Notes: generated by a model not told the origin, from the letters alone. A stretch of DNA of 64,000 nt from an uncultured bacterium (GCA_964474705.1 CAYYUI010000002.1:5-64004); one strand, 5' to 3'; shown: positions 20,379 to 61,500, numbered from the stretch's first letter. Numbers and translations: made by a program.

Positions 20379-23267
20379 TCAGGCGGAAGGGTGGGTGGTA
20401 ATGGCGGCGACAGTGAGGTCGCAGTCGGAAGGGAACCCGGCCTGGGTGTACAGGCTCGTGAAGGTGGCGAGAAAGGCTTCGGCAGAAATGGCGGCTGAAG
20501 TCTGCAACAGGGCGTTGCCGCCCGCCCCTGAAACGACGAAATCTGCTGCGGGGGCATAGGTTGCCAGTATCAGAGCACAACCATCGTTGAGGTTGATGTG
20601 CAGTCCGGCTATCTTTTGCCCGTGGCCGGCCAGAGGCAGGGAAGGCATCGGCAGAAGGCGCACCGTGCCTGAGTTGCGGTCGATGAGAACCGGGTCGTTC
20701 ATCCCGGCATTGCTGATTTCCAGGCTGGTGTCGTCATGGCACAGTATATATTGCAGGCTGATTTCATGACCTTCTCGACCGGCATTGCTTCGCTGCAGCA
20801 GTTCGTTGAGCTCTTCCATGAAGCGTGCCGGCTGGTCGGTCAGGTCATGAAGCTGCATGGCAGCTGACTTGAGAAAAGCCAGCAGCAGGCAGCGGCTTAT
20901 GCCGGTGCCGCCGACGTTGCCCAGCAGCAGGGCGGGTCGATTGGCAGCGGTGCTGATCAATTCAAAATAGTCGCCACCATTTCCGGCCAGCGACAGGGTT
21001 TTGCCATAAATGCCCAGCCTGCCGGCCAGAAGCGGCTGAGCCATTCTGGTCATCAGCTTTTCCTGAACGATAGAAGCAACGTGCATTTCTTCGAGATCGC
21101 CGAGAATTTCGTTGAAAATACCAGCCAGAGAGCCGAATTCATCGCGGCCCAGGTCTGGCAGGCGATAGGAAAAATTGCGCTTCTGCAGCTCGCCGATGCC
21201 GGTTTGCAGCTCTGACAGCGGCAGTAAAATCCCTGATGACACCTTGAGCCCCAGGGAAACTGAGATTAACAGGCTGACCAGAGCCAGCAGCCAGATCATT
21301 CGACGTTTGGAGCCTATTTGGCTCTCTATCTGCCCGAGCGGATAGAGGGAAAACAGCCTGATAGTCGGCATATGTACGCATTTGTGGCCGGCGAGCATGA
21401 AGTTTTCGTTGTCTATGACACAGAATTCAGGACGGGTGAGAGTTCTGTTTCTGAGTTTGCCGGCGAATTCAGCAAGACGGGCATTCGCGAGCGTTTCCGG
21501 GGGAAAGGCAGTGCTGAACAGATCGTCGGCGGCCATGACTCTGATGCCGTCTTCATTGCGGTTCAGAGCGTGAAAGATGCGCCTGATGAATTCGAGTTCG
21601 AGTTTGCGGCTGTCCCAGACGTAGAGCATGATGTAGTCGAGCAGAGCCGGGTCGAACAGCGAGAAGGTCTCGATGTAGGTCGGGTGTCTGACCTGCCCGA
21701 TGCCCCAATGCCAGAAAGTGCCGCTCTCGTAAAACCTTCGGATCAGCTCGGCAGGCTTTTTCTGCATCAAGCCATCGGAAATGAATTCGACCTCGGCTCC
21801 CTGCTTTCCAGAAATCGGTGTTTTGTTGATGCTCGCCATGATAAATGTCGTCAGCTTGAAAATGGCATTCATGACGTTGGTTTTGACCGGTGAGGTTTTC
21901 AGGCGGCTGTCGAAGGCTTCCTGAATGACACCGTTTTTCATGATTCCGGTATCGCCGGCAATGATCCCGGTGCTGCTCGCTGCGATGAACAACATGTCCG
22001 GGCCAGGGCGTTGCGGGGTGACAAAATTACTGATCGTCTGCCGGTTTACGAGGTTATGCTGCAGGGCGGAGCGCAATTCGGGCAGAGCTCTGGTTATTCG
22101 GCCCTTCTGGACGCTGTATTCATTGTTGAAAAGCTCATCGATGTTCTGCATGCAGGTCATGCTGCGGTTGAACGCCCGGTTCAGCAGGCCGGCGCGGAGT
22201 TGTTGCAGATAGTCACTTCCTGAGACCAGCAGCAGAAAGCCGGGCAGAATGTTTGCGACCACAAAAAGCAGCACCAGCTGAGTTCGTAGGCCGAGCGAAA
22301 GTCTGACGCCGCCAGCCATTACCCGATAGCTCAAAACCGCATAATATACCAGGCATAGATGCAGAAAAACCATTATCAGTCTGGTGAATCCATCGCTGGC
22401 CGGCATGTCGATACTGCTTTTTCTGACGGCGCAGAAACCGGTGAGGCTTTCGTTGATGAAGTTGGTAAAAATGTAGTAATTGGGCAAATCCTGGCAGTCG
22501 CTGAAGCGATGCCGCATGGCCGCTAATCTCGTTTGCAGACTTGCGGCCAGTTCCGGGTCAGCGCAATAAGCCCGGTGGTCGGTCATATAGCCCGAATGCA
22601 GGTCACCACGATATGAATCTAGCATTTTGTCAAGCCCGGGTGTTCGTTTCAGCAGGCCGTAATCGAAGAACACCGCGAGGCCGAAGCGTTCGTCGACTTT
22701 CAGCCAGGTCAGCGGGTATTTCTGGGCCGAATCTGGCCTGATGAGGCTGAGTTCACGCCCTGAATAACAATTGCGGAAGAAAAGCGGAAAAAAGTGTGGC
22801 CCGAAAATCTGCCGCAGGTTTTTCATGACTTCCGGGGGGATATTTTTCTCGTAGTTCTGATAAAACCAGTCGGCAATGCGGCGAAGCTCAAGATAGGCCT
22901 GTTGCCAGTTTCCTGGATTCTGCCGCCAGGAAAAATTGGCCTGATAAATCTCCCCGGATGGCTGCCAGATCAGATAGCGCATTTTCAGCCGGTGCTGTTT
23001 CCCATAGTCGTCGATGGCAGTTCTGAGAGCGGCGCTATTCTGGCTTTCTCTGAAAATTGCATCGAGACTGCTGCAGGTATATTTTTCCGTATCAGCTAGA
23101 GCCCGCATCGTTGCCAGCATTTCATCGGCAGCCGCGGCAAAATTTCTGAAGCGTGTCTCGCGGTCGAGCGTCGCCAGATAATAACCGCCCGCCCAGAAGA
23201 TCAGCAGAGGCAGAAGAACGGTTGCGCCGGCAAGCCTGAGCCAGGCGGTAATGTTTCTGTCAGGCAT
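20379..23267 (-). CDS. membrane sensor phosphatase: periplasmic domain, HAMP, PP2C (SpoIIE/RsbU-type)
   Basis: N-terminal TM, a ~290-aa extracytoplasmic region, a second TM and a HAMP-like linker (LSELQTGIGELQKRNFSYRLPDLGRDEFGSLAGIFNEIL). The C-terminal PP2C domain has GGDYFELI...GNVGGTGIS and a C-terminal DG motif. Confidence 0.8.
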   Translation of the reverse strand: MPDRNITAWLRLAGATVLLPLLIFWAGGYYLATLDRETRFRNFAAAADEMLATMRALADTEKYTCSSLDAIFRESQNSAALRTAIDDYGKQHRLKMRYLIWQPSGEIYQANFSWRQNPGNWQQAYLELRRIADWFYQNYEKNIPPEVMKNLRQIFGPHFFPLFFRNCYSGRELSLIRPDSAQKYPLTWLKVDERFGLAVFFDYGLLKRTPGLDKMLDSYRGDLHSGYMTDHRAYCADPELAASLQTRLAAMRHRFSDCQDLPNYYIFTNFINESLTGFCAVRKSSIDMPASDGFTRLIMVFLHLCLVYYAVLSYRVMAGGVRLSLGLRTQLVLLFVVANILPGFLLLVSGSDYLQQLRAGLLNRAFNRSMTCMQNIDELFNNEYSVQKGRITRALPELRSALQHNLVNRQTISNFVTPQRPGPDMLFIAASSTGIIAGDTGIMKNGVIQEAFDSRLKTSPVKTNVMNAIFKLTTFIMASINKTPISGKQGAEVEFISDGLMQKKPAELIRRFYESGTFWHWGIGQVRHPTYIETFSLFDPALLDYIMLYVWDSRKLELEFIRRIFHALNRNEDGIRVMAADDLFSTAFPPETLANARLAEFAGKLRNRTLTRPEFCVIDNENFMLAGHKCVHMPTIRLFSLYPLGQIESQIGSKRRMIWLLALVSLLISVSLGLKVSSGILLPLSELQTGIGELQKRNFSYRLPDLGRDEFGSLAGIFNEILGDLEEMHVASIVQEKLMTRMAQPLLAGRLGIYGKTLSLAGNGGDYFELISTAANRPALLLGNVGGTGISRCLLLAFLKSAAMQLHDLTDQPARFMEELNELLQRSNAGREGHEISLQYILCHDDTSLEISNAGMNDPVLIDRNSGTVRLLPMPSLPLAGHGQKIAGLHINLNDGCALILATYAPAADFVVSGAGGNALLQTSAAISAEAFLATFTSLYTQAGFPSDCDLTVAAITTHPSA

Positions 23268-26163
23268 CTGAACTGTCCTCCATGCGCAGCATCAGGAAAG
23301 TCAGATCGTCGTCGCGCCTGTCGGTCCAGGCCTTGTGACCTTCGAGAATCCTGCTCCAGTAGGTTTCGAGATCGGCGTGCCAGGCATCGGCAACCATTTT
23401 GAGAAACCTCGGGTAACCCAGCATTTCGCCTGATGGTGCCATTGCCTCGACAATTCCATCGGTATAGAGAATAAGCGTGGCGCCTGGAAGCAGGGCCAGG
23501 GTTTGTTCGACGGCCCGGTTCTTCGTTGAGCTCCCGAGCGGAAACCCATGAATTTCAATGAGTCGGGGGGCATTGCCGCCAGGCCCGATCATTACCGGGT
23601 AGCAATGCCCGGCATTGGCGATTTTGAATGCGCCGCTGCTGCAGTCGAAATCAAGGCACTGAGCGGTCATCATGCGTCGCCAGTCTTTCTTTTTCAATTC
23701 GTTCAGCACGCAGCTGCCACGGTGCAGCACTTCCGCTGGTCCGGGAAAGTCTCTGGAAACGCCTGCAATCATGGCTTTCATCATCGCCATGATCATCGCT
23801 GCCGGAATGCCGTGCCCGGCAACGTCTCCGAAGAAAATTGCCATTCTGTCGTTTGGCAGATCAAAGTAATCATAATAGTCACCACCCATTTTGCTCATAA
23901 ACAGGGAGCGCGCAAAAAGGCTGATCTTGCCGCGGCAGTGATGTTCCGGTGGTAAAAGACTGACTTGAACCGCAGTGCCGACTGCGAGCTCACGCATACC
24001 TTCGACGGTGGTGTTGAAAGCTTCGGTCAGCCGGCCAAGCTCATCGTTGCTTAACGAAGGAACGCGGATAGAATAATCACGTTTTCTCACCTTTTCTATA
24101 CCGGTTGCCAGAGATTCAACCGGTGCCAGCAGCCTGTGTGAAAACAGTATGACCGTCTGCCTGAGGATGATGACGACCAGCAGAAAACCTATACCGATTG
24201 CAAGTTTCAGTCTGAAGATCTGTTGCTCGATTATGGCTTCGGGGTAGAGTGCGACGAGAACTCCCATGCCGATTTCGTTGCCGGCAATCGAGGTGAAGAG
24301 ATAGTTCTTTCCGTCGAGGGCAACGCGTTCGCCGGCAATCATTTTTCGACTGCGGGTCAGGCGCATTAATCTGTTGATCTGCGGGTTGTTGATCTGTGTC
24401 GTCGAGAAAATCTTTTCAGAGTCATTGTCCATGACCGCAAGAATTCGTGGTTTAACCTCTTCAGAGGCTTGTGTGAGACTTGCGCTGATAAAATCTCTTA
24501 GAAAAGTGGCTCTTTCCCATGACAGGAGGAGAATACCCCAGATTTGCCCCTGTTGCTGGGCTCCGGTGAATTTCACGTAAGTCAGGCGTTCACTGTTGCC
24601 GCTGCTCATGAGCGAAAAACGGTCGACGGCCCCGAGGAAGAAATACAGTGATTTGTCGATACTCGAAACCTGTTCCAGTATCGAGGATTGCCCCTTTTTG
24701 CCGGCAGTTTCACCTTTACCTCCGAAGAATAGCAGGGCGTTCTGCATCAGAGAAAGTCCCATCTTCGAGGCACGGTTCGTCGTCTTGGCCATGTAGAAAG
24801 TGTAATTGCCCTCTGGTTCGGCCAGACCGCCTTCTTCCGGGCCTATTTCTGCGACCAGAGCCTGCAGGGCTTCTATTTCCGCATCAGGCCAACGTTTGCC
24901 GCCATATTTTTTGTTTCGTGCATCGATAAAAGCATTCAGACGATCTGCCAGAACCGCTGAGGTCTCCGGAAACCTGACGTCGAATTCCTTTAAAATGCGC
25001 AGGGATTCCTGGTGGGCGGCGTTGAAAAGTTCATCGCGTTTTTCATGAAAGAACTCGTAGCCGGCCGAAATCATCAGCCCAAGGGGCAGACCATTCGAGA
25101 AGATGAAGAGCAGCAACATTTTCTGGCGCACCGAAAGACACCATTCCGGGTGGCGCAGCAGATAGCAGTGCCAGACAAATAATGCCAGCATCAGCGCGAT
25201 GCTTATTCTTCCCAGCATGCGGGCCGAAAGATTATGAGGATCTGGTAAAAAAGTTGCCGGAAGGTAACTGATTAGAATCAGATCAGGAGAAGCCTGCCGG
25301 ATATTGAGCAGATAGTTCCGGCTTTGCCGCTGCGATTGCCCATCTGCCTCGTATTTTTTTACTTCCAGCATGATTTCGGACTGATGGGTGGTTGCAGCAG
25401 GCATGCCGAAACCTTGATAGGAAAGAGTCTTTACAAAAGCGAGGCGTTCAGGTTCAGCGGTTGCGGCTGCCTGTCGAACCATCGATTTTGGGCCGAGATG
25501 CCTGCCGGTCAGGGCAGCATCGAGAAAGCAGGCAAGCGAAAAATTGCTGCCCGGGTAATACCAGAGCAATTTTTGACCTGGTTCGAGGCTGACTGAGAGA
25601 CATTTTCCTTTGGCGCCGGGGCGCAGCGGCTCAAAAAGCTGGTTTTCGAAGAGAAACTGGCCGAAATAACCGCGCAACAGATTCATTTTTTCGACGATCT
25701 TCTGAATGTCGGCCGGATTGGCTGTTTCATCGACTTTAAAAGCATCTGCGAGCATGTGCATGACCTGAAACATGCTTTTCATGACAAACTGAAAACGTTT
25801 TTCGTCACTCAGATTTCTGTTGATGGAACCATCGCTGTTCCAGACGATGAATCTGATTCTGTCGGAAAAAAAACTGCGAACAGCGGCGACTTTCTCGATA
25901 AGTGCCTGCTCAGGGCCTGCCGACCTATCGGCGAGGGTGAAGTTTTTTTGCAGCAATGCATGAAAAAATGCCAGGTCATCATGGTATCTTGCAAAGCGGT
26001 CCAGCTTGATATTCAGGCGATAATGGGCATTTTCGACCGCCTGCTGATACGCGGCGCCAAAAGTTCCGGAAAGAAACAGCCACAAAAGATATAGTGGCAA
26101 AAGCAGCCCCAGCAGCAGCTGAGTAAGCTTGAATCCAATGATGCCGGCAAAGTTTCTGATCAA
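23260..26163 (-). CDS. membrane sensor phosphatase paralogue: periplasmic domain, HAMP, PP2C (SpoIIE/RsbU-type)
   Basis: Same architecture as the downstream gene: HAMP (LATGIEKVRKRDYSIRVPSLSNDELGRLTEAFNTTVEGM) and PP2C (GGDYYDYFDL...FFGDVAGHGIPAAM...YTDGIVEA). Overlaps the downstream paralogue by 8 nt. Confidence 0.8.
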   Translation of the reverse strand: MIRNFAGIIGFKLTQLLLGLLLPLYLLWLFLSGTFGAAYQQAVENAHYRLNIKLDRFARYHDDLAFFHALLQKNFTLADRSAGPEQALIEKVAAVRSFFSDRIRFIVWNSDGSINRNLSDEKRFQFVMKSMFQVMHMLADAFKVDETANPADIQKIVEKMNLLRGYFGQFLFENQLFEPLRPGAKGKCLSVSLEPGQKLLWYYPGSNFSLACFLDAALTGRHLGPKSMVRQAAATAEPERLAFVKTLSYQGFGMPAATTHQSEIMLEVKKYEADGQSQRQSRNYLLNIRQASPDLILISYLPATFLPDPHNLSARMLGRISIALMLALFVWHCYLLRHPEWCLSVRQKMLLLFIFSNGLPLGLMISAGYEFFHEKRDELFNAAHQESLRILKEFDVRFPETSAVLADRLNAFIDARNKKYGGKRWPDAEIEALQALVAEIGPEEGGLAEPEGNYTFYMAKTTNRASKMGLSLMQNALLFFGGKGETAGKKGQSSILEQVSSIDKSLYFFLGAVDRFSLMSSGNSERLTYVKFTGAQQQGQIWGILLLSWERATFLRDFISASLTQASEEVKPRILAVMDNDSEKIFSTTQINNPQINRLMRLTRSRKMIAGERVALDGKNYLFTSIAGNEIGMGVLVALYPEAIIEQQIFRLKLAIGIGFLLVVIILRQTVILFSHRLLAPVESLATGIEKVRKRDYSIRVPSLSNDELGRLTEAFNTTVEGMRELAVGTAVQVSLLPPEHHCRGKISLFARSLFMSKMGGDYYDYFDLPNDRMAIFFGDVAGHGIPAAMIMAMMKAMIAGVSRDFPGPAEVLHRGSCVLNELKKKDWRRMMTAQCLDFDCSSGAFKIANAGHCYPVMIGPGGNAPRLIEIHGFPLGSSTKNRAVEQTLALLPGATLILYTDGIVEAMAPSGEMLGYPRFLKMVADAWHADLETYWSRILEGHKAWTDRRDDDLTFLMLRMEDSSDA

Positions 26164-54328: not shown

Positions 54329-54357
54329 TTGAACAGCGGGGTTTTTGTGCTTATAAT
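54329..54357 (+). promoter_or_regulatory. near-consensus sigma70 promoter TTGAAC-17-TATAAT, positioned for a leaderless pilT transcript
   Basis: TTGAAC at 54329..54334, a 17-nt spacer, then TATAAT at 54352..54357. The predicted TSS at ~54364/54365 coincides with the PilT ATG at 54365. The track's TTG 'start' at 54329 is the -35 box. Confidence 0.5.
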
Positions 54358-54364
54358 GACTGAC

Positions 54365-55438
54365 ATGGCAGACGCAAAAAGCTTGTTCAGATTACTAAAA
54401 CTGACTTTTGATGAGAACGCCTCCGACCTGCACCTGAAAATCGGCAAATCGGCCGCAATCAGGGTCGATGGGCACATTCGTCATCTTGAAGATTTTAAAT
54501 TCAACAAACATGATTTCGACCGGATTATCGAGGTGTTGTTGACCCCTGACCAGCAGGACCAGTTCCGCAAAAACCGCGAAATTGACTTTGCCTATTCCCT
54601 CGAAGGAGTATGCAGATTCAGGGTGAACCTCTACCAGGACCTGAACGGCGCCGGAGCCGTCTTCAGGGTGATTCCATACCGGGTTATGGAATTCGACGAA
54701 ATCGGCCTGCCCTTCGCCGCGCGTCGGCTGATCGAGCAACCCAATGGCCTGATTCTCATCACCGGGCCGACCGGGGCCGGCAAAACGTCGACGATGGCCA
54801 GTTATCTGAGCTATGTCAATCGCAATGCCCGTCGCCATGTGGTGACGCTCGAAGACCCGATCGAATATCAGTTCGAAGATGGCAACAGTTTCTTCAACCA
54901 GCGTCAGGTCGGCATCGACTGTTTGAGTTTTTATGACGGTCTGCTGACTGTTCTCCGCCAGGACCCCGACATAATCGTCGTCGGTGAAATGCGCGAACCT
55001 GAAACGATTTCTCTGACACTTAACGCCGCCGAAACCGGGAAACTGGTCATCGCGACTCTGCATACCAGCTCGGCGGTCAGTACCGCTGAGCGCATTGTCA
55101 ACGTTTTTCCCGAGGCCAGGCATCATCAGATTTTTCTGCAGCTGTCGATGGTGCTGCGCGGAGTCGTTTCACAGACGTTGCTGCCAAAAGTCGAAGGCGG
55201 CCGGGTCGCGGCTTTCGAAATACTGCTGAATACTTCGGCGGTTCGGTCTCTGATTGCCGACGGCAAGATTCACATGTTGCCGTCTTATCTTGAAACCGGA
55301 ACCGAATTCGGCATGACCACCATGGAAATGTCACTGGCACAGCTGGTTAAAGACCGGGTTGTCAGAAAAGAAGATGCATATTCGGTGGCGCCTAATCCGG
55401 CGGCACTGCGCAAGATCCTCAACGAACCGCCAGTCTGA
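54365..55438 (+). CDS. pilT: type IV pilus retraction ATPase PilT (canonical motifs)
   Basis: N-terminal ASDLHL...IRVDG domain. Walker A GPTGAGKTST, Asp box LEDPIEY, Walker B DPDIIVVGEMRE, His box IATLHTSSA. Confidence 0.85.
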   Translation: MADAKSLFRLLKLTFDENASDLHLKIGKSAAIRVDGHIRHLEDFKFNKHDFDRIIEVLLTPDQQDQFRKNREIDFAYSLEGVCRFRVNLYQDLNGAGAVFRVIPYRVMEFDEIGLPFAARRLIEQPNGLILITGPTGAGKTSTMASYLSYVNRNARRHVVTLEDPIEYQFEDGNSFFNQRQVGIDCLSFYDGLLTVLRQDPDIIVVGEMREPETISLTLNAAETGKLVIATLHTSSAVSTAERIVNVFPEARHHQIFLQLSMVLRGVVSQTLLPKVEGGRVAAFEILLNTSAVRSLIADGKIHMLPSYLETGTEFGMTTMEMSLAQLVKDRVVRKEDAYSVAPNPAALRKILNEPPV

Positions 55439-55451
55439 CGGGGTAACCAGC

Positions 55452-56489
55452 ATGCTGAGAATTCACCGCTTTTTTGAAATTGCCATCGAACGCCAGGCCT
55501 CAGATCTTCATCTCAAGGCCGGGGCGCCGCCGATCATCAGGGTCGGAGGGCGACTTATTCAACTTCCTGAAGAACCGCTGGCTTATCAGGAAATGCCGAA
55601 TCTCTTTTTGCCGTTGATGGATGTTAAAGCACAGAGCGATCTACGTGCCCAGCATGAAGCGAACTTCATGGCCAGATACAAGAACCGCTGGCGGGTGCGC
55701 GCCTGCATTTTCAGCCAGCGCGGCTGCCTTTCCGGGGCTTTCCGTTTCATTCCCCTCTCGACGCCATCGATCGATGGTCTTGGCCTGCCACCGCTGCTCA
55801 AGGAAATAGCAGCGCGGCCGCGCGGCCTGTTTCTGGTAACCGGGCCGGCCAACTCGGGCAAAACCCATACTCTTGCAGCAATCGTCAACGAGATCAACCG
55901 TATCTCAGCCCGACACGTCATCACTATCGAAGACCCTATCGAATTTGTCTACCGCGAACGCAAGTCGATATTTACCCAGCGCGAAATCGGGGTAACCGCC
56001 AACGATTACCACAGCGCCCTGATGAATGCGCTACGAGAAGACCCCGACGTAATTCTGGTCGGTGAAATGCGTGATGTCGATACCATTGAAATGGTACTGA
56101 CTGCTGCCGAAACCGGTCATCTGGTCTTGTCGACCCTGCATACGGTCGGGGCGGTGCAGACTATCGATCGCATTATCAACATGTTTCCGGGGCATCGCCA
56201 CGAAGAAATCCGTACCCAGGTTTCGATGTCGCTGATCGGAATAATTTCGCAGATACTTCTGCCCAGTCTGCACAAGAAAGAACGGGTCATGGCTTATGAG
56301 CTGATGATAATGAACTCGGCCATGCGGAACCTGATCCGTGAAAAGAAGACCAACCAGCTTAAGTCTGCTCTGATGCTGGCGCGCAAGGACGGCTGCAAAA
56401 CCCTCAAAGACTCGCTCAACGAAATGCTCAAAGATGAACGTGTCGATGGCCGGCTGGTTTCGACGGTCATGAAGGAGATAGTAGAATGA
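55452..56489 (+). CDS. PilT/PilU-family retraction ATPase (canonical motifs), second copy
   Basis: Walker A GPANSGKTHT, Asp box IEDPIEF, Walker B DPDVILVGEMRD, His box LSTLHTVGA. The ATG at 55452 lies 13 nt after the pilT stop. Confidence 0.85.
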   Translation: MLRIHRFFEIAIERQASDLHLKAGAPPIIRVGGRLIQLPEEPLAYQEMPNLFLPLMDVKAQSDLRAQHEANFMARYKNRWRVRACIFSQRGCLSGAFRFIPLSTPSIDGLGLPPLLKEIAARPRGLFLVTGPANSGKTHTLAAIVNEINRISARHVITIEDPIEFVYRERKSIFTQREIGVTANDYHSALMNALREDPDVILVGEMRDVDTIEMVLTAAETGHLVLSTLHTVGAVQTIDRIINMFPGHRHEEIRTQVSMSLIGIISQILLPSLHKKERVMAYELMIMNSAMRNLIREKKTNQLKSALMLARKDGCKTLKDSLNEMLKDERVDGRLVSTVMKEIVE

Positions 56490-58649: not shown

Positions 58650-59696
58650 ATGTCAGAATTGTTGAAAGTATGTCAGCTGGTCAAGGTTAAGGGGGCTTCA
58701 GATATCCACCTCTACCCGGATCAGCCGGTGTTTTACCGCCTGTACGGCCAGATCGAAAAGCTCGATACGGTGCAGCTCAGCGAAGACCAGATAAAGAAGA
58801 TCATTCTCGAAACCAGCACCCCGAAAGCCCGTGAAATTCTCGGTAAGCAACGCCAGGTAACTTATGCCGAAGAAGTGCCTACCGTTGGGCGCCTCAGGTT
58901 TTCAGTGTTTCTCGACAAAGGAAAGTTTGCCATCGCCATACGTTTTATCAGCGAGAAATTTTTCGAACTCGATGAGCTTGGCTTTGCCGAGGGAATCCGC
59001 AAGGTGATTTCGCAGCCATCTGGTCTGGTGCTGGTGGGCAGCCCTTCCGGGGAAGGAAAAACCACAACCATTGCTGCGATGCTCAATTTTATCAACCGGC
59101 ATTTCGAAAAAAGCATTTTTACCATCGAGAATCCCGTAGAATACGTGTTCTCAGATGATAAGGCCGCTTTCATCCAGCGTAGTATTCCGGTCGATATTTC
59201 AAATTTTTACAACGGTCTCTGCGAAGCCTATCGGGTTGATCCCGACGTCGTCGTATCTGATTCCATCAATTATTCCGATGCCATGGATCAGGCCCTGACC
59301 CTTTGCGAGTCCGGCTGCATGGTAATCGGTTCCACTGAAGGTGGGGACTGTCAGCAGATTCTCGAGCGTCTGATCAACTGCCGTGAGCCGGCAGGCCGTG
59401 AAGCTTTGCGGGCAAGAATCGCCGCGCAACTGAAGATGATTGTCAGTCAGCGCCTGATTCCGCGCGAAGATAAGACCGGCAGAGTTGCCATCTTCGATAT
59501 CATGATCAACACGCCGCAGATGAAAGCCCTGGTTCGCAACAATAACATGAGCATGTTTCGTGCTCTGCAGGGGCAGGGAGAAATCGCCGGCATGAAGACC
59601 TTCGATTCACAGCTGGCGCACCTGGTGAGAAAACGCATTATCAGTCAGAGAGTTGGGGCCGAATACGCGATCGATAAGTCGCGGATTAACAGTTAA
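58650..59696 (+). CDS. PilT-like ATPase paralogue with degenerate catalytic motifs (probable pseudo-ATPase)
   Basis: PilT N-domain is retained (ASDIHLYPDQPVFYRLYG). The P-loop is GSPSGEGKTTT, with the first Gly shifted. The Asp box is IENPVEY (D to N). Walker B is DPDVVVSDSINY, with the catalytic Glu and the Arg lost. The His box is GSTEGG, with His lost. AAAGAGG SD. Confidence 0.75.
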   Translation: MSELLKVCQLVKVKGASDIHLYPDQPVFYRLYGQIEKLDTVQLSEDQIKKIILETSTPKAREILGKQRQVTYAEEVPTVGRLRFSVFLDKGKFAIAIRFISEKFFELDELGFAEGIRKVISQPSGLVLVGSPSGEGKTTTIAAMLNFINRHFEKSIFTIENPVEYVFSDDKAAFIQRSIPVDISNFYNGLCEAYRVDPDVVVSDSINYSDAMDQALTLCESGCMVIGSTEGGDCQQILERLINCREPAGREALRARIAAQLKMIVSQRLIPREDKTGRVAIFDIMINTPQMKALVRNNNMSMFRALQGQGEIAGMKTFDSQLAHLVRKRIISQRVGAEYAIDKSRINS

Positions 59697-59709
59697 AGGG
59701 GACTGCAGC

Positions 59710-60750
59710 ATGGATATCCGCAAAATGATCGAAAAAGTAAAGACCGCAGGCGGCACCGAGCTGCATCTTAAGGTTGGTGCCAAACCCCTGATGCGCCGCA
59801 ACAAGTTTCTCCGCCACATGGAACTGCCGATTCTGCACGAAGACGATATGTCAACTCTGATCAAAGATCTCCTCAACGATGAAGACCGCCAGAAATTCGC
59901 CAGACTCAGTTCTTTCGAAGCGAACTTCTTTGGCAAACCGCCCTGTAACTTTCGTCTTACCCTTTTTCATTCGCAACAGAAGCCGGTCGCCCTGATCAAA
60001 ATCATCAACAACAAGATTCCCAGTCTCGAAGAAATCAGGTTTCCTGACGCTCTTACACCGATTATCGATGCCCGCAAGGGTATTTTCATAATCGCAGGGC
60101 CTGCCAGATCAGGCATTTCAACCTCGCTTGCCGCAATCGTGGAGCGCATTAACCAGATGCATCCACGGCATGTGCTGATCATCGAAGATCCGATCGAATT
60201 CAACTTTGAACCCAAGCGCTGCCGCATTTCTCAGAGGCAGTTCCGCAAGGATATCAACCAGATCGAGCAGGGCATCAACTTTGCCAAGCGTATGGATGTG
60301 GATGTCCTGGTGATTGGCGATCTCAAACGGGAAATTCCATTTCGGAACATTGTGGAATACGTTGCCGGCGGTCATTTTGTCATTCTGAGCATGCAGACGC
60401 TTGGAATTGTCAACACTCTCGAAAAATTCATCTTCTCATTTCCCGAGCCTGACCGTGAATATGTCTGTCAGGTGCTGGCTGAAAATCTGCAGGGAATCTG
60501 TTCGCAGATGCTGATTGCCGATATGGGCGGCAAGCGCGTGGTGCCTGTTCACGAGACTCTGGTAATGAACAACACTGCGATGAGCATTGTTCAGAAAGGC
60601 AAAATTTCACAGCTTGAACCCAATATCACCAGTGTCGGGCCGGGTAGCCAGCTGTTTGCGCAGGTCGTTCAGAAGCTCTATCTCAAAAACGATCTCGAGC
60701 GCACCGCCGGCGAAGATTTTCTCGATTTCTACCGTGGGGCCAGGGGGTAA
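59710..60750 (+). CDS. PilT-like ATPase paralogue with P-loop Lys lost (probable pseudo-ATPase)
   Basis: Walker A is AGPARSGISTS, with the Lys replaced by Ile. Walker B is DVDVLVIGDLKR, with Glu lost. The His box is LSMQTLG, with His replaced by Gln. The Asp box IEDPIEF is retained. AAAGGGGA SD before the ATG at 59710. Confidence 0.75.
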   Translation: MDIRKMIEKVKTAGGTELHLKVGAKPLMRRNKFLRHMELPILHEDDMSTLIKDLLNDEDRQKFARLSSFEANFFGKPPCNFRLTLFHSQQKPVALIKIINNKIPSLEEIRFPDALTPIIDARKGIFIIAGPARSGISTSLAAIVERINQMHPRHVLIIEDPIEFNFEPKRCRISQRQFRKDINQIEQGINFAKRMDVDVLVIGDLKREIPFRNIVEYVAGGHFVILSMQTLGIVNTLEKFIFSFPEPDREYVCQVLAENLQGICSQMLIADMGGKRVVPVHETLVMNNTAMSIVQKGKISQLEPNITSVGPGSQLFAQVVQKLYLKNDLERTAGEDFLDFYRGARG

Positions 60751-60752
60751 TT

Positions 60753-61133
60753 ATGAACAGCAGCCGTGGCAGAAGAGGTTTCACGCTTGTCGAAATGAGC
60801 GTCGTCGTGGCCATAATCGGGGTGCTTTATGCAACCGTGGTGCCTGTTTATGGCAAAACAATTATGCGTGCCCGTGAAACAGCGCTTAAAAACAGCCTGC
60901 ATACCTTCCGCATTACCCTCAACAATTATTACAAAGATCACGAAAAATGGCCTGAAAAACTCGATGTGCTGGTGACTGAAGGTTACATCCGGGCTGTTCC
61001 GGCAGACCCTTTTACGGATCGCAGTGATACCTGGTTGGTTGTGCCCTCTGAACCCGGTTTGTCAGATGTTTACGACATCAAATCGGGTGCTGAAGGTGCC
61101 AGTCTCGATGGTGTACCTTATGCAGATTTCTGA
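60753..61133 (+). CDS. GspG-like major pseudopilin (type II secretion / type IV pilin fold)
   Basis: N-terminus RRGFTLVEMSVVVAIIGVLYATVVPVY is a class III signal with Glu at +5. Length 126 aa. The C-terminal region resembles GspG (ITLNNYYKDHEKWPEKLDVLV...PADPFTD). AGGGGG SD. Confidence 0.75.
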   Translation: MNSSRGRRGFTLVEMSVVVAIIGVLYATVVPVYGKTIMRARETALKNSLHTFRITLNNYYKDHEKWPEKLDVLVTEGYIRAVPADPFTDRSDTWLVVPSEPGLSDVYDIKSGAEGASLDGVPYADF

Positions 61134-61500
61134 GCGTTCCGGAATTTCACTGCTGGTGCTGACGGTTGCTCTGGTTCTTATGGCTATTGGTCTTTCAGTC
61201 GTCATTCCGCGTGCTGATCTTGAGGTCAGACGCAGTCACGAAGAAGATCTGCGCTTCAAGCTCGGTGAATTCCGCCGGGCGGTAAGCAAATTTGCCAGAT
61301 GCAATGGCCGGCAGCCTGCCAATCTTGATGAACTGCTATGCGATGCTGGTGGGCGAAAGTTTCTGCGCCGGGCTTATGTCGATCCGATGACCGGTGCCTT
61401 CGACTGGCAGTGGGGTATTGCTTCCGATGGGGTGTTTGCGGTGCATTCTGCAAGCCAGCAGCCAGGAATCAACGGCGTGCCTTACAGCGCTTTTCGTTAA
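61120..61500 (+). CDS. minor pseudopilin-like protein
   Basis: N-terminus ERSGISLLVLTVALVLMAIGLSVV (G|ISLLV + hydrophobic helix). Its ATG at 61120 overlaps the GspG-like stop. The track's start at 61024 lies inside the upstream gene. Confidence 0.55.
   Translation: MQISERSGISLLVLTVALVLMAIGLSVVIPRADLEVRRSHEEDLRFKLGEFRRAVSKFARCNGRQPANLDELLCDAGGRKFLRRAYVDPMTGAFDWQWGIASDGVFAVHSASQQPGINGVPYSAFR

Follow-up and report, generated by a model that had tools for sequence, protein, structure and literature searches.

What purpose could be served by two adjacent genes for PilT-like proteins whose catalytic motifs are altered, each in its own way? Such a pair, here called T3 and T4, occupies positions 58,650 to 60,750 of a 64,000-nt stretch of DNA from an uncultured bacterium (GCA_964474705.1 CAYYUI010000002.1:5-64004), the whole of which is referred to as the window, and lies downstream of two further PilT paralogues, T1 and T2. 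A preliminary description, made from the sequence alone, took T3 and T4 for inactive tandem PilT paralogues that are retained under selection as regulatory protomers. We hold with moderate confidence, on the strength of sequence comparisons, that both are ancient PilT-family proteins that lack the canonical chemistry of ATP hydrolysis, have a remodelled and conserved pocket, and form non-motor rings that tune a type IV pilus. The residues of their ATPase motifs have been replaced by others that are equally conserved, and the two proteins are probably partner subunits of an apparatus with four PilT proteins rather than the products of dead genes.

Residue equivalences were taken from HMMER alignments to Pseudomonas aeruginosa PilT (PaPilT, 3JVU; its natural numbering is used throughout) and are secure because these alignments are essentially ungapped. 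The presumed Arg fingers, R82 and R97 of PaPilT, were assigned by spacing analogy with PilB R271 and R286 and not from a structure. About 114 T3-type and 89 T4-type orthologues were recovered, and 110 and 82 full-length sequences, respectively, were used for residue counts; counts out of 44 refer to T3/T4 pairs derived from genomes. In PilT-like ATPases, the acidic residue of Walker B is atypically a Gly and the Glu next to it positions the hydrolytic water, the Glu of the Asp box binds Mg, the His of the His box touches the gamma-phosphate, and two Arg fingers complete the site (PMC5424180).

In T3, the residues that bind nucleotide are in place, and the catalytic Glu and the gamma-phosphate His are gone. 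Its Walker A motif (canonically G-x4-G-K-[ST]) reads S-PSGE-G-K-T, so that the first Gly is gone and GK[ST] is retained. The shift of register once proposed for this P-loop disappears in the ungapped alignment, where K136 and T137 are in place and G130S is the only departure from the motif; S137T is a further difference from PaPilT. The Asp box (canonically E-D-P-I-E) reads E-N-P-V-E and so has the Mg-binding E163 and lacks D160, and the exchange of Asp for Asn pointed out earlier is fixed in all 110 sequences. At the site of the canonical hhhhG followed by E204, every one of the 110 has D203-S204. The reported loss of both the catalytic Glu and the Arg is borne out as E204S and R206N, and T3 has regained the classical Walker B Asp (hhhhD). 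The His box has C222 and an acidic residue, Glu or Asp, at position 229, in agreement with the described loss of His (H222C and H229E in the window). Retained are K136, T137, R82, R97, E163, R194, E219 and R239, with the two presumed Arg fingers present in 44/44 pairs. The C-terminal AIRNLIRE motif of PilT is replaced by a conserved variant, NTPQMKxL[IV][RK]N.

T4 deviates elsewhere. Its Walker A motif reads G-PARS-G-I-S and has lost the Lys, which is Ile in 81/82 orthologues, just as described before. The Glu of Walker B is indeed absent, although it was not simply lost: position 204 holds the conservative replacement Asp in 82/82 and is preceded by G203 in 77/82. In the His box, H222 is retained and H229 has become Gln, as noted earlier, in 74/82. 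Further changes are R80N and R97K, position 97 being Lys in 34/44 pairs; R82 is kept. The counterpart of AIRNLIRE, AMSIVQKG, is poorly conserved. All motif strings quoted in the preliminary description, including those of the PilT N-terminal domain, were found where it had placed them. It had also named a Lys together with a Glu at the catalytic positions as evidence against inactivity; the alignment gives T3 the Lys without the Glu, and gives T4 neither, with Asp for Glu.

The substituted residues are themselves under constraint. In T3, S130, K136, N160, D203, S204 and Y207 are invariant (110/110), position 137 is Thr or Ser, G230 and G231 each occur in 109/110, and only acidic or small residues occupy position 229, among them Glu in 72 and Asp in 33 of the 110 sequences. 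The corresponding figures for T4 are 81/82 for I136, 78/82 for R133, 82/82 for D204, 81/82 for K206 and 74/82 for Q229. These sets extend without interruption from 100% identity down to 47% (T3) and 43% (T4) and are separated by a gap from ordinary PilTs, which reach at most 35% and 29% identity, respectively. Among the 44 pairs, positions conserved at 90% or more make up 59% of the four motif windows in T3 and 63% in T4, compared with 29% and 27% outside them. The former active site is the most constrained part of both proteins, which argues for a pocket that has been remodelled and is still in use, not one that has been abandoned.

At the level of the genes, the open reading frames (ORFs) of T3 and T4 are intact in 44/44 pairs. 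Since synonymous divergence (dS) is saturated (>1) among species representatives, a usable ratio of non-synonymous to synonymous rates (dN/dS) was obtained from the closest genome (L004), which differs by 112 synonymous and 6 non-synonymous changes in T3 and by 115 and 5 in T4, corresponding to dN/dS ~0.01. More distant pairs, with dS at saturation, gave 0.02-0.07, with one T4 pair at 0.15, and T1 and T2 gave 0.02-0.05 on the same pairs. Mean pairwise identity over the same 31 genomes is 0.64 for T3 and 0.61 for T4 against 0.78 for T1 and 0.81 for T2, which puts the evolutionary rate of T3 and T4 at roughly twice that of T1 and T2. Both genes are kept by strong purifying selection. The proposal that they are retained under selection and are not pseudogenes is thereby upheld, and the search for decay among orthologues that it called for returned the same substitutions, fixed throughout the 110 T3 and 82 T4 sequences, in intact frames.

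The family and fold assignments place both proteins next to PilT. Pfam PF00437 (T2SSE) and NCBIfam TIGR01420 (PilT/PilU) are the best family models for all four paralogues. T3 and T4 pass the former (81.8 and 47.7 bits against a cutoff of 24.9) and, at 275.8 and 217.6, remain below the cutoff of 319.1 of the latter, which T1 (405) and T2 (384) exceed; they are homologues that lie outside the curated boundary of the PilT/PilU family. AlphaFold 2 models built from the orthologue alignments (predicted local distance difference test, pLDDT, 89.7 for T3 and 90.6 for T4) predict the PilT arrangement of a PAS-like N-terminal and a RecA-like C-terminal domain in ~345 aa. The best Foldseek matches of these models are PilT, PilT4 and PilU structures, at template modelling (TM) scores of 0.8-0.92, the T3 model reaching 0.92 with PilT4 (6OJX). 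Like the PilTs of P. aeruginosa (3JVU/3JVV), Geobacter metallireducens (PilT4, 6OJX), Aquifex aeolicus (2EWV) and Thermus thermophilus (PilT2, 5FL3), which are their best matches, T3 and T4 are two-domain proteins of this size without an N1 or zinc domain. Unlike these, T3 lacks the catalytic Glu, H222, H229 and D160, T4 lacks K136, H229, E219, T220 and R80, and both lack AIRNLIRE and fall short of the curated cutoff.

With PilU (P. aeruginosa, 9N32; Vibrio cholerae) they share being encoded beside another paralogue and having no AIRNLIRE. In PilU, however, the ATPase motifs are intact and a C-terminal extension makes contact with PilT; T3 and T4 (348 and 346 aa) have neither feature, and neither protein is closer to PilU than to PilT. 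PilU identity was considered for T1, T3 and T4 and rejected, as all three score higher against PilT and have no C-terminal extension. T3 and T4 should not be classed as motors of the PilT or PilU type, because they depart from the family in the curated score, in Walker A (T4), at the catalytic Glu, in the His box and in AIRNLIRE; current annotations as 'twitching motility protein PilT' or 'TadA' overstate their capability. With canonical residues gone under purifying selection and loss of activity predicted, they do fit the general definition of a pseudoenzyme, here a pseudo-ATPase.

The two genes are neighbours and in that sense tandem paralogues, as described previously, but they are not recent duplicates. 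T3 and T4 share ~20% identity, and each is nearer to canonical PilT (28-30%). In a bootstrap tree, T1, T2, T3 and T4 each form a clade in 50/50 replicates, T3 and T4 are sisters in 3/50, and no other pairing is supported; the T3-T4 distance is 2.54, compared with 1.71 (T3) and 2.03 (T4) to canonical PilTs. From the identity, the bootstraps and the distances, T3 and T4 represent ancient lineages that diverged independently, and a recent tandem duplication of one degenerate ancestor was rejected on the first two counts.

The names carried by nearly identical proteins and contigs assign the window to the candidate phylum Riflebacteria (Rifleibacteriota; Ozemobacteraceae/Rifleibacterium). A scan for the T4 pattern with one genome per species in GTDB r232 returned 45 Riflebacteria loci and, elsewhere, nothing but canonical PilTs, whose identity did not exceed 30%, and an exhaustive T3 profile search of 1.84 billion cluster representatives yielded only three T3-type proteins (P0213, P0112 and P0113). 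T3 and T4 are restricted to this one phylum. Metagenome-assembled genomes named Candidatus Methylomirabilis, Candidatus Avigastranaerophilus, Erysipelotrichia and Clostridiales (L020, L026, L028, L040 and P0047) hold a Riflebacteria-type seven-gene cluster at 55-88% identity; these contigs have probably been mis-binned or mis-classified. In most loci of sufficient length, down to ~50% protein identity, the gene order is HEAT/TPR (minus strand), T1-T2-HEAT/TPR-T3-T4-pilin-pilin, recN (minus strand), and T3 lies directly upstream of T4, at 0-14 nt, in 44/44 complete pairs. Two deep lineages have T3-T4 apart from T1/T2, and one of these (L001) retains the first pilin gene. A radical-SAM gene follows T3-T4, directly or past the pilin, in both (L001 12586-13368 and L002 12142-12990).

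Table 1. T3 and T4, their motifs, and the remaining genes of the cluster; coordinates are those of the window.
Feature	Coordinates	Strand	Remarks
T3, PilT-fold protein, 348 aa	58650..59696	+	copy 3 of the preliminary description
T3 Walker A, SPSGEGKTT	59040..59066	+	G130S; K136 and T137 kept
T3 Asp box, IENPVEY	59124..59144	+	D160N; E159 and E163 kept
T3 Walker B region, DPDVVVSDSINY	59238..59273	+	G203D, E204S, R206N, D207Y
T3 His box, ESGCMVIGSTEGG	59307..59345	+	H222C, H229E
T4, PilT-fold protein, 346 aa	59710..60750	+	copy 4 of the preliminary description
T4 Walker A, GPARSGIST	60097..60123	+	G133R, K136I
T4 Asp box, IEDPIEF	60181..60201	+	intact
T4 Walker B region, DVDVLVIGDLKR	60295..60330	+	E204D, R206K
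T4 His box, AGGHFVILSMQTL	60364..60402	+	E219A, T220G, H229Q; H222 kept
T1, PilT-family ATPase	54356..55438	+	intact Walker A and B, Asp box and H229
T2, canonical PilT	55452..56489	+	all catalytic motifs and AMRNLIRE
HEAT and TPR protein, 715 aa	56486..58633	+	between the active and the degenerate PilT pair
HEAT and TPR paralogue, 795 aa	51833..54220	-	divergent from T1; adjoins the cluster and is conserved there
First small prepilin-type (GspG-like) gene	60753..61133	+	begins 3 nt past T4
Second small pilin-like gene	61120..61500	+	last in the operon

A possible division of roles follows from the differences between the two pockets. T3 most likely would bind Mg-ATP and hold it without turnover as an 'ATP-state' subunit, because GK[ST], R82, R97 and E163 are kept and the catalytic Glu and the gamma-phosphate His are gone. 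T4 most likely would not bind nucleotide in the normal way and would represent an 'apo-state' subunit, because the P-loop Lys (K136I) and several interface residues (R80N, E219A and T220G) are lost. In PilT, ATP binding correlates with closure of the subunit interfaces, and hexamers adopt patterns of open and closed interfaces such as OCOCOC and CCOCCO (PMC6858323). Produced together from adjacent genes, T3 and T4 would make up rings without motor function, as a hexamer of both proteins or as one homohexamer of each, stacked. Their docking sites would be the pilus platform, the active motors T1 and T2, or both, with the HEAT/TPR proteins possibly serving as an organizing scaffold. As adaptor, placeholder or brake, the rings would tune extension and retraction. 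The pilus concerned would be a type IV pilus built from the small pilins encoded in the same cluster.

Stacking of separate rings appears at least as plausible as mixed hexamers by analogy, given the precedent of PilT and PilU. In V. cholerae, PilT carrying K136A, E204A or both supports near-normal retraction and transformation, and it does so because PilU works through PilT; PilU is useless without a PilT protein (PMC6821130). PilU thus acts only by way of another PilT-family ring, in stacked hexamers (PMC6821130; bioRxiv 10.1101/2025.10.30.685630). PilT and PilU with a dead Walker A motif stay stably bound to the machine, PilT forming the bridge between it and PilU (bioRxiv 10.1101/2025.10.30.685630), and an in situ cryo-electron tomography preprint, as far as it is related in the same source, describes two stacked densities in such mutants. 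T4 and T3 resemble these engineered proteins in having natural changes at K136 and E204, respectively, and the engineered dead PilT still serves as an adaptor for PilU and dwells on the machine. Unlike these laboratory point mutants, which alter a PilT that is canonical in all other respects, T3 and T4 carry numerous further fixed changes and are ancient genes in their own right, beside two intact PilTs. As a lead only, the most conserved stretch of T3 outside the pocket, residues 45-73 of the N-terminal domain, aligns with the part of PilT that holds E53; in V. cholerae PilT, D2, R35, K36 and E53 have been studied as contacts for the C-terminus of PilU (bioRxiv 10.1101/2025.10.30.685630).

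One bolder possibility, which we find rather unlikely, is an obligate heterohexamer in which T3 and T4 alternate, (T3·ATP-T4·apo)3, and which is permanently locked in the C3-symmetric 'OCOCOC' state that PilT motors visit only transiently. Sitting on the platform, or stacked under T2 or T1 and held by the HEAT/TPR proteins, this ring would be a static element, whether stator, plug or adaptor. In that case the PilT/VirB11 superfamily would have its first natural member that is both heteromeric and non-catalytic.

How several PilT-family rings cooperate is a subject of current work, and engineered mutants show that a non-hydrolysing PilT ring can be useful as an adaptor for PilU. The Riflebacteria locus suggests that an adaptor-type PilT has been fixed by evolution in dedicated genes, next to two intact motors and two repeat scaffolds. 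If so, T3 and T4 would be natural probes for the functions of PilT that depend on hydrolysis, for the way in which open and closed interfaces set ring conformation, and for the stacking of rings, and the concept of the pseudoenzyme would be extended to the PilT/VirB11 superfamily of secretion ATPases.

Several observations weigh against non-motor rings that act on a pilus. A pocket so strongly conserved would be expected just as well if catalysis had been retained through relocated residues. T3 has lost two acidic residues (D160 and E204) and gained two (D203 and E/D229), and most exchanges in T4 are of a conservative kind (E to D, R to K and H to Q) and accompanied by a new Arg in the P-loop. 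As neither protein has a canonical AIRNLIRE, the motif placed at the PilC interface in an AlphaFold 3 model of V. cholerae PilT (a model only; bioRxiv 10.1101/2025.10.30.685630), direct binding to the platform is uncertain, and T4 is without a PilU-type C-terminal extension. Lastly, PilB, PilC and PilMNOPQ were searched for in the window and none was found, nor were pilus-related genes outside the cluster, so that the link to a particular pilus machine is only indirect.

The first of these observations lead to a doubtful alternative in which ATPase activity persists in T3, and possibly in T4, at a rewired site, which would make them divergent motors and not pseudo-ATPases. In T3, Asp203 would coordinate Mg and Glu/Asp229, at the position of the gamma-phosphate His, would activate the water; in T4, Arg133 would stand in for Lys136 and Asp204 for Glu204. 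The balanced acidic residues of T3, its P-loop Lys and Thr, both Arg fingers and E163 are all consistent with this, as are the co-conserved R133 and I136, D204 and K206 of T4, with K97 in 34/44 genomes, and the fact that the pocket motifs are the best-conserved parts of both proteins. The idea is opposed by the abolition of P. aeruginosa PilT function in vivo by E204A and by H229A (PMC6858323), by the Walker A Lys, which is considered essential for nucleotide binding in P-loop NTPases and which is treated so in PMC6821130, by the scores below the curated cutoff, and by the lack of a precedent for such a PilT-like site in the literature searched. That the pockets bind some other small ligand, a nucleotide or a second messenger, and that T3 and T4 are sensor subunits coupling a signal to T1 and T2, would also explain the invariance of the new residues, the conservation of the pocket above that of the protein surface, and the charged or polar newcomers at the gamma-phosphate position (E/D229 in T3 and Q229 in T4) and in the P-loop (E134 in T3 and R133 in T4). 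We consider this quite unlikely: GK[ST], the Arg fingers and the Mg-binding Glu of T3 best suit ordinary ATP or ADP, and gene-order mapping revealed no conserved signalling gene in the cluster.

The absence of core pilus genes from the window and the two deep lineages, in which T3-T4 lie apart from T1/T2 and beside radical-SAM genes, could instead mean that the pair belongs to some process outside pilus dynamics, be it a different device for secretion or uptake or a purely cytoplasmic task shared with the HEAT/TPR proteins, and that its adjacency to T1/T2 is incidental. Against this speak the seven-gene order with two prepilin-type genes after T4, conserved in most of the phylum, the linkage of T3-T4 to a pilin in one of the deep lineages (L001), and the nearest structural relatives, which are all PilT or PilU, making a role outside the pilus very unlikely. 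The faster evolution of T3 and T4 and their position below the NCBIfam cutoff might further be taken as signs of decaying duplicates, pseudogenes or genes being lost. The probability of this is negligible in view of the intact ORFs, the dN/dS values of ~0.01-0.07 and the substitutions that stay invariant down to 43-47% identity, on which grounds decay was ruled out; the folds predicted with high confidence for both proteins point the same way. Non-motor rings tuning the pilus thus remain our preferred interpretation.

Related solutions exist outside the PilT family proper and in other arrangements within it. The archaeal protein FlaH (ArlH) is an ATP-binding, non-hydrolysing protein with a RecA fold. 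Within the scaffold ring of FlaX it regulates the FlaI motor, and its binding to FlaI is controlled by its nucleotide state (PMC5019145). FlaH with the FlaX ring may be seen as a functional analogy to T3 with a HEAT/TPR scaffold; unlike T3 and T4, FlaH is of the KaiC/RecA type and is not paired as two different degenerate forms. The T3 profile search additionally returned, at high scores, many 660-1024-aa tandem double-PilT fusions of other lineages (P0214-P0225, P0231 and P0259, the last labelled Verrucomicrobiota). They were rejected as T3-like orthologues, as their scores sum two domains, most are canonical, and none is an orthologue of T3 or T4. Several of the fusions have one or both halves degenerate, and in some a single module is without its Walker A Lys, its catalytic Glu or its His-box His. 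The N-terminal half of P0222, for example, has K136R, E163R and G203D, lacks both His of the His box and keeps E204, and its C-terminal half is canonical with AVRNLIRE. Like T3-T4, the fusions obligatorily pair two PilT modules, one of them degenerate in some cases; unlike T3-T4, they are single polypeptides, and their degenerate halves have no more than 30% identity to T3 or T4 and are not orthologous to them. Because these halves degenerated independently, the sequences suggest that the pairing of a PilT module with a non-catalytic one arose more than once. The five PilT paralogues of Myxococcus xanthus all have intact motifs. Our literature search, which had partial coverage, returned nothing relevant on naturally degenerate PilT paralogues or pseudo-ATPases in pilus systems, an absence that is weak and provisional.

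The organization of the locus is given in Table 1. T1 to the second pilin-like gene form a tight run on one strand, with the start of the 715-aa HEAT/TPR gene overlapping the stop of T2 (ATGA) and recN converging from downstream. T3 and T4 are each preceded by a Shine-Dalgarno sequence, AAGAGG 8 nt ahead of the ATG of T3 and AAGGGG ahead of ATG 59710 of T4, which, with their intact ORFs, agrees with the preliminary description. ATG 59710 is taken as the start of T4 because the orthologues are 346 aa and match it; an upstream TTG at 59653 was rejected for the same reason. The best sigma-70-like match of the region, TTGAAC-17-TATAAT (10/12) at 54329-54357 on the plus strand, lies at or over the start of T1, and if it is real, T1 either starts at a later Met (54365) or is leaderless. 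A weak terminator-like site is present at 61474-61491, at the end of the second pilin-like gene.

The remaining members of the cluster have features of their own. T1 has fixed oddities (H222K, R123N and AVRSLIAD in place of AIRNLIRE), as does T2 (a P-loop GPANSGKT and D31G, with AMRNLIRE kept), and the two may split labour in the manner of PilT and PilU, although both match PilT better than PilU. Both HEAT/TPR proteins are kept beside or inside the PilT cluster across the phylum. Their HEAT repeats are N-terminal and their TPRs C-terminal, with a Pro-rich linker in the 795-aa protein; no signal-peptide-like N-terminus is obvious in either (judged by eye for the 715-aa protein), and among characterised pilus regulators none of such an architecture was identified. 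The two pilin-like genes overlap by 14 nt. The second is conserved, at 45-76% identity, in its place behind the first, GspG-like one, and its product matched no Pfam or NCBIfam model and begins MQISERSG|ISLLVLTV without a Glu at +5.

The neighbours of the cluster in the window are housekeeping genes (RecG, RecN, DnaE, FabH, HydF and MoeA). Farther away, at 20379-26163 on the minus strand, two adjacent genes encode ~965-aa proteins with a HAMP domain and a SpoIIE-type PP2C phosphatase domain, the phosphatase match of the second being weak, and these may form another pair of an active and a degenerate paralogue.

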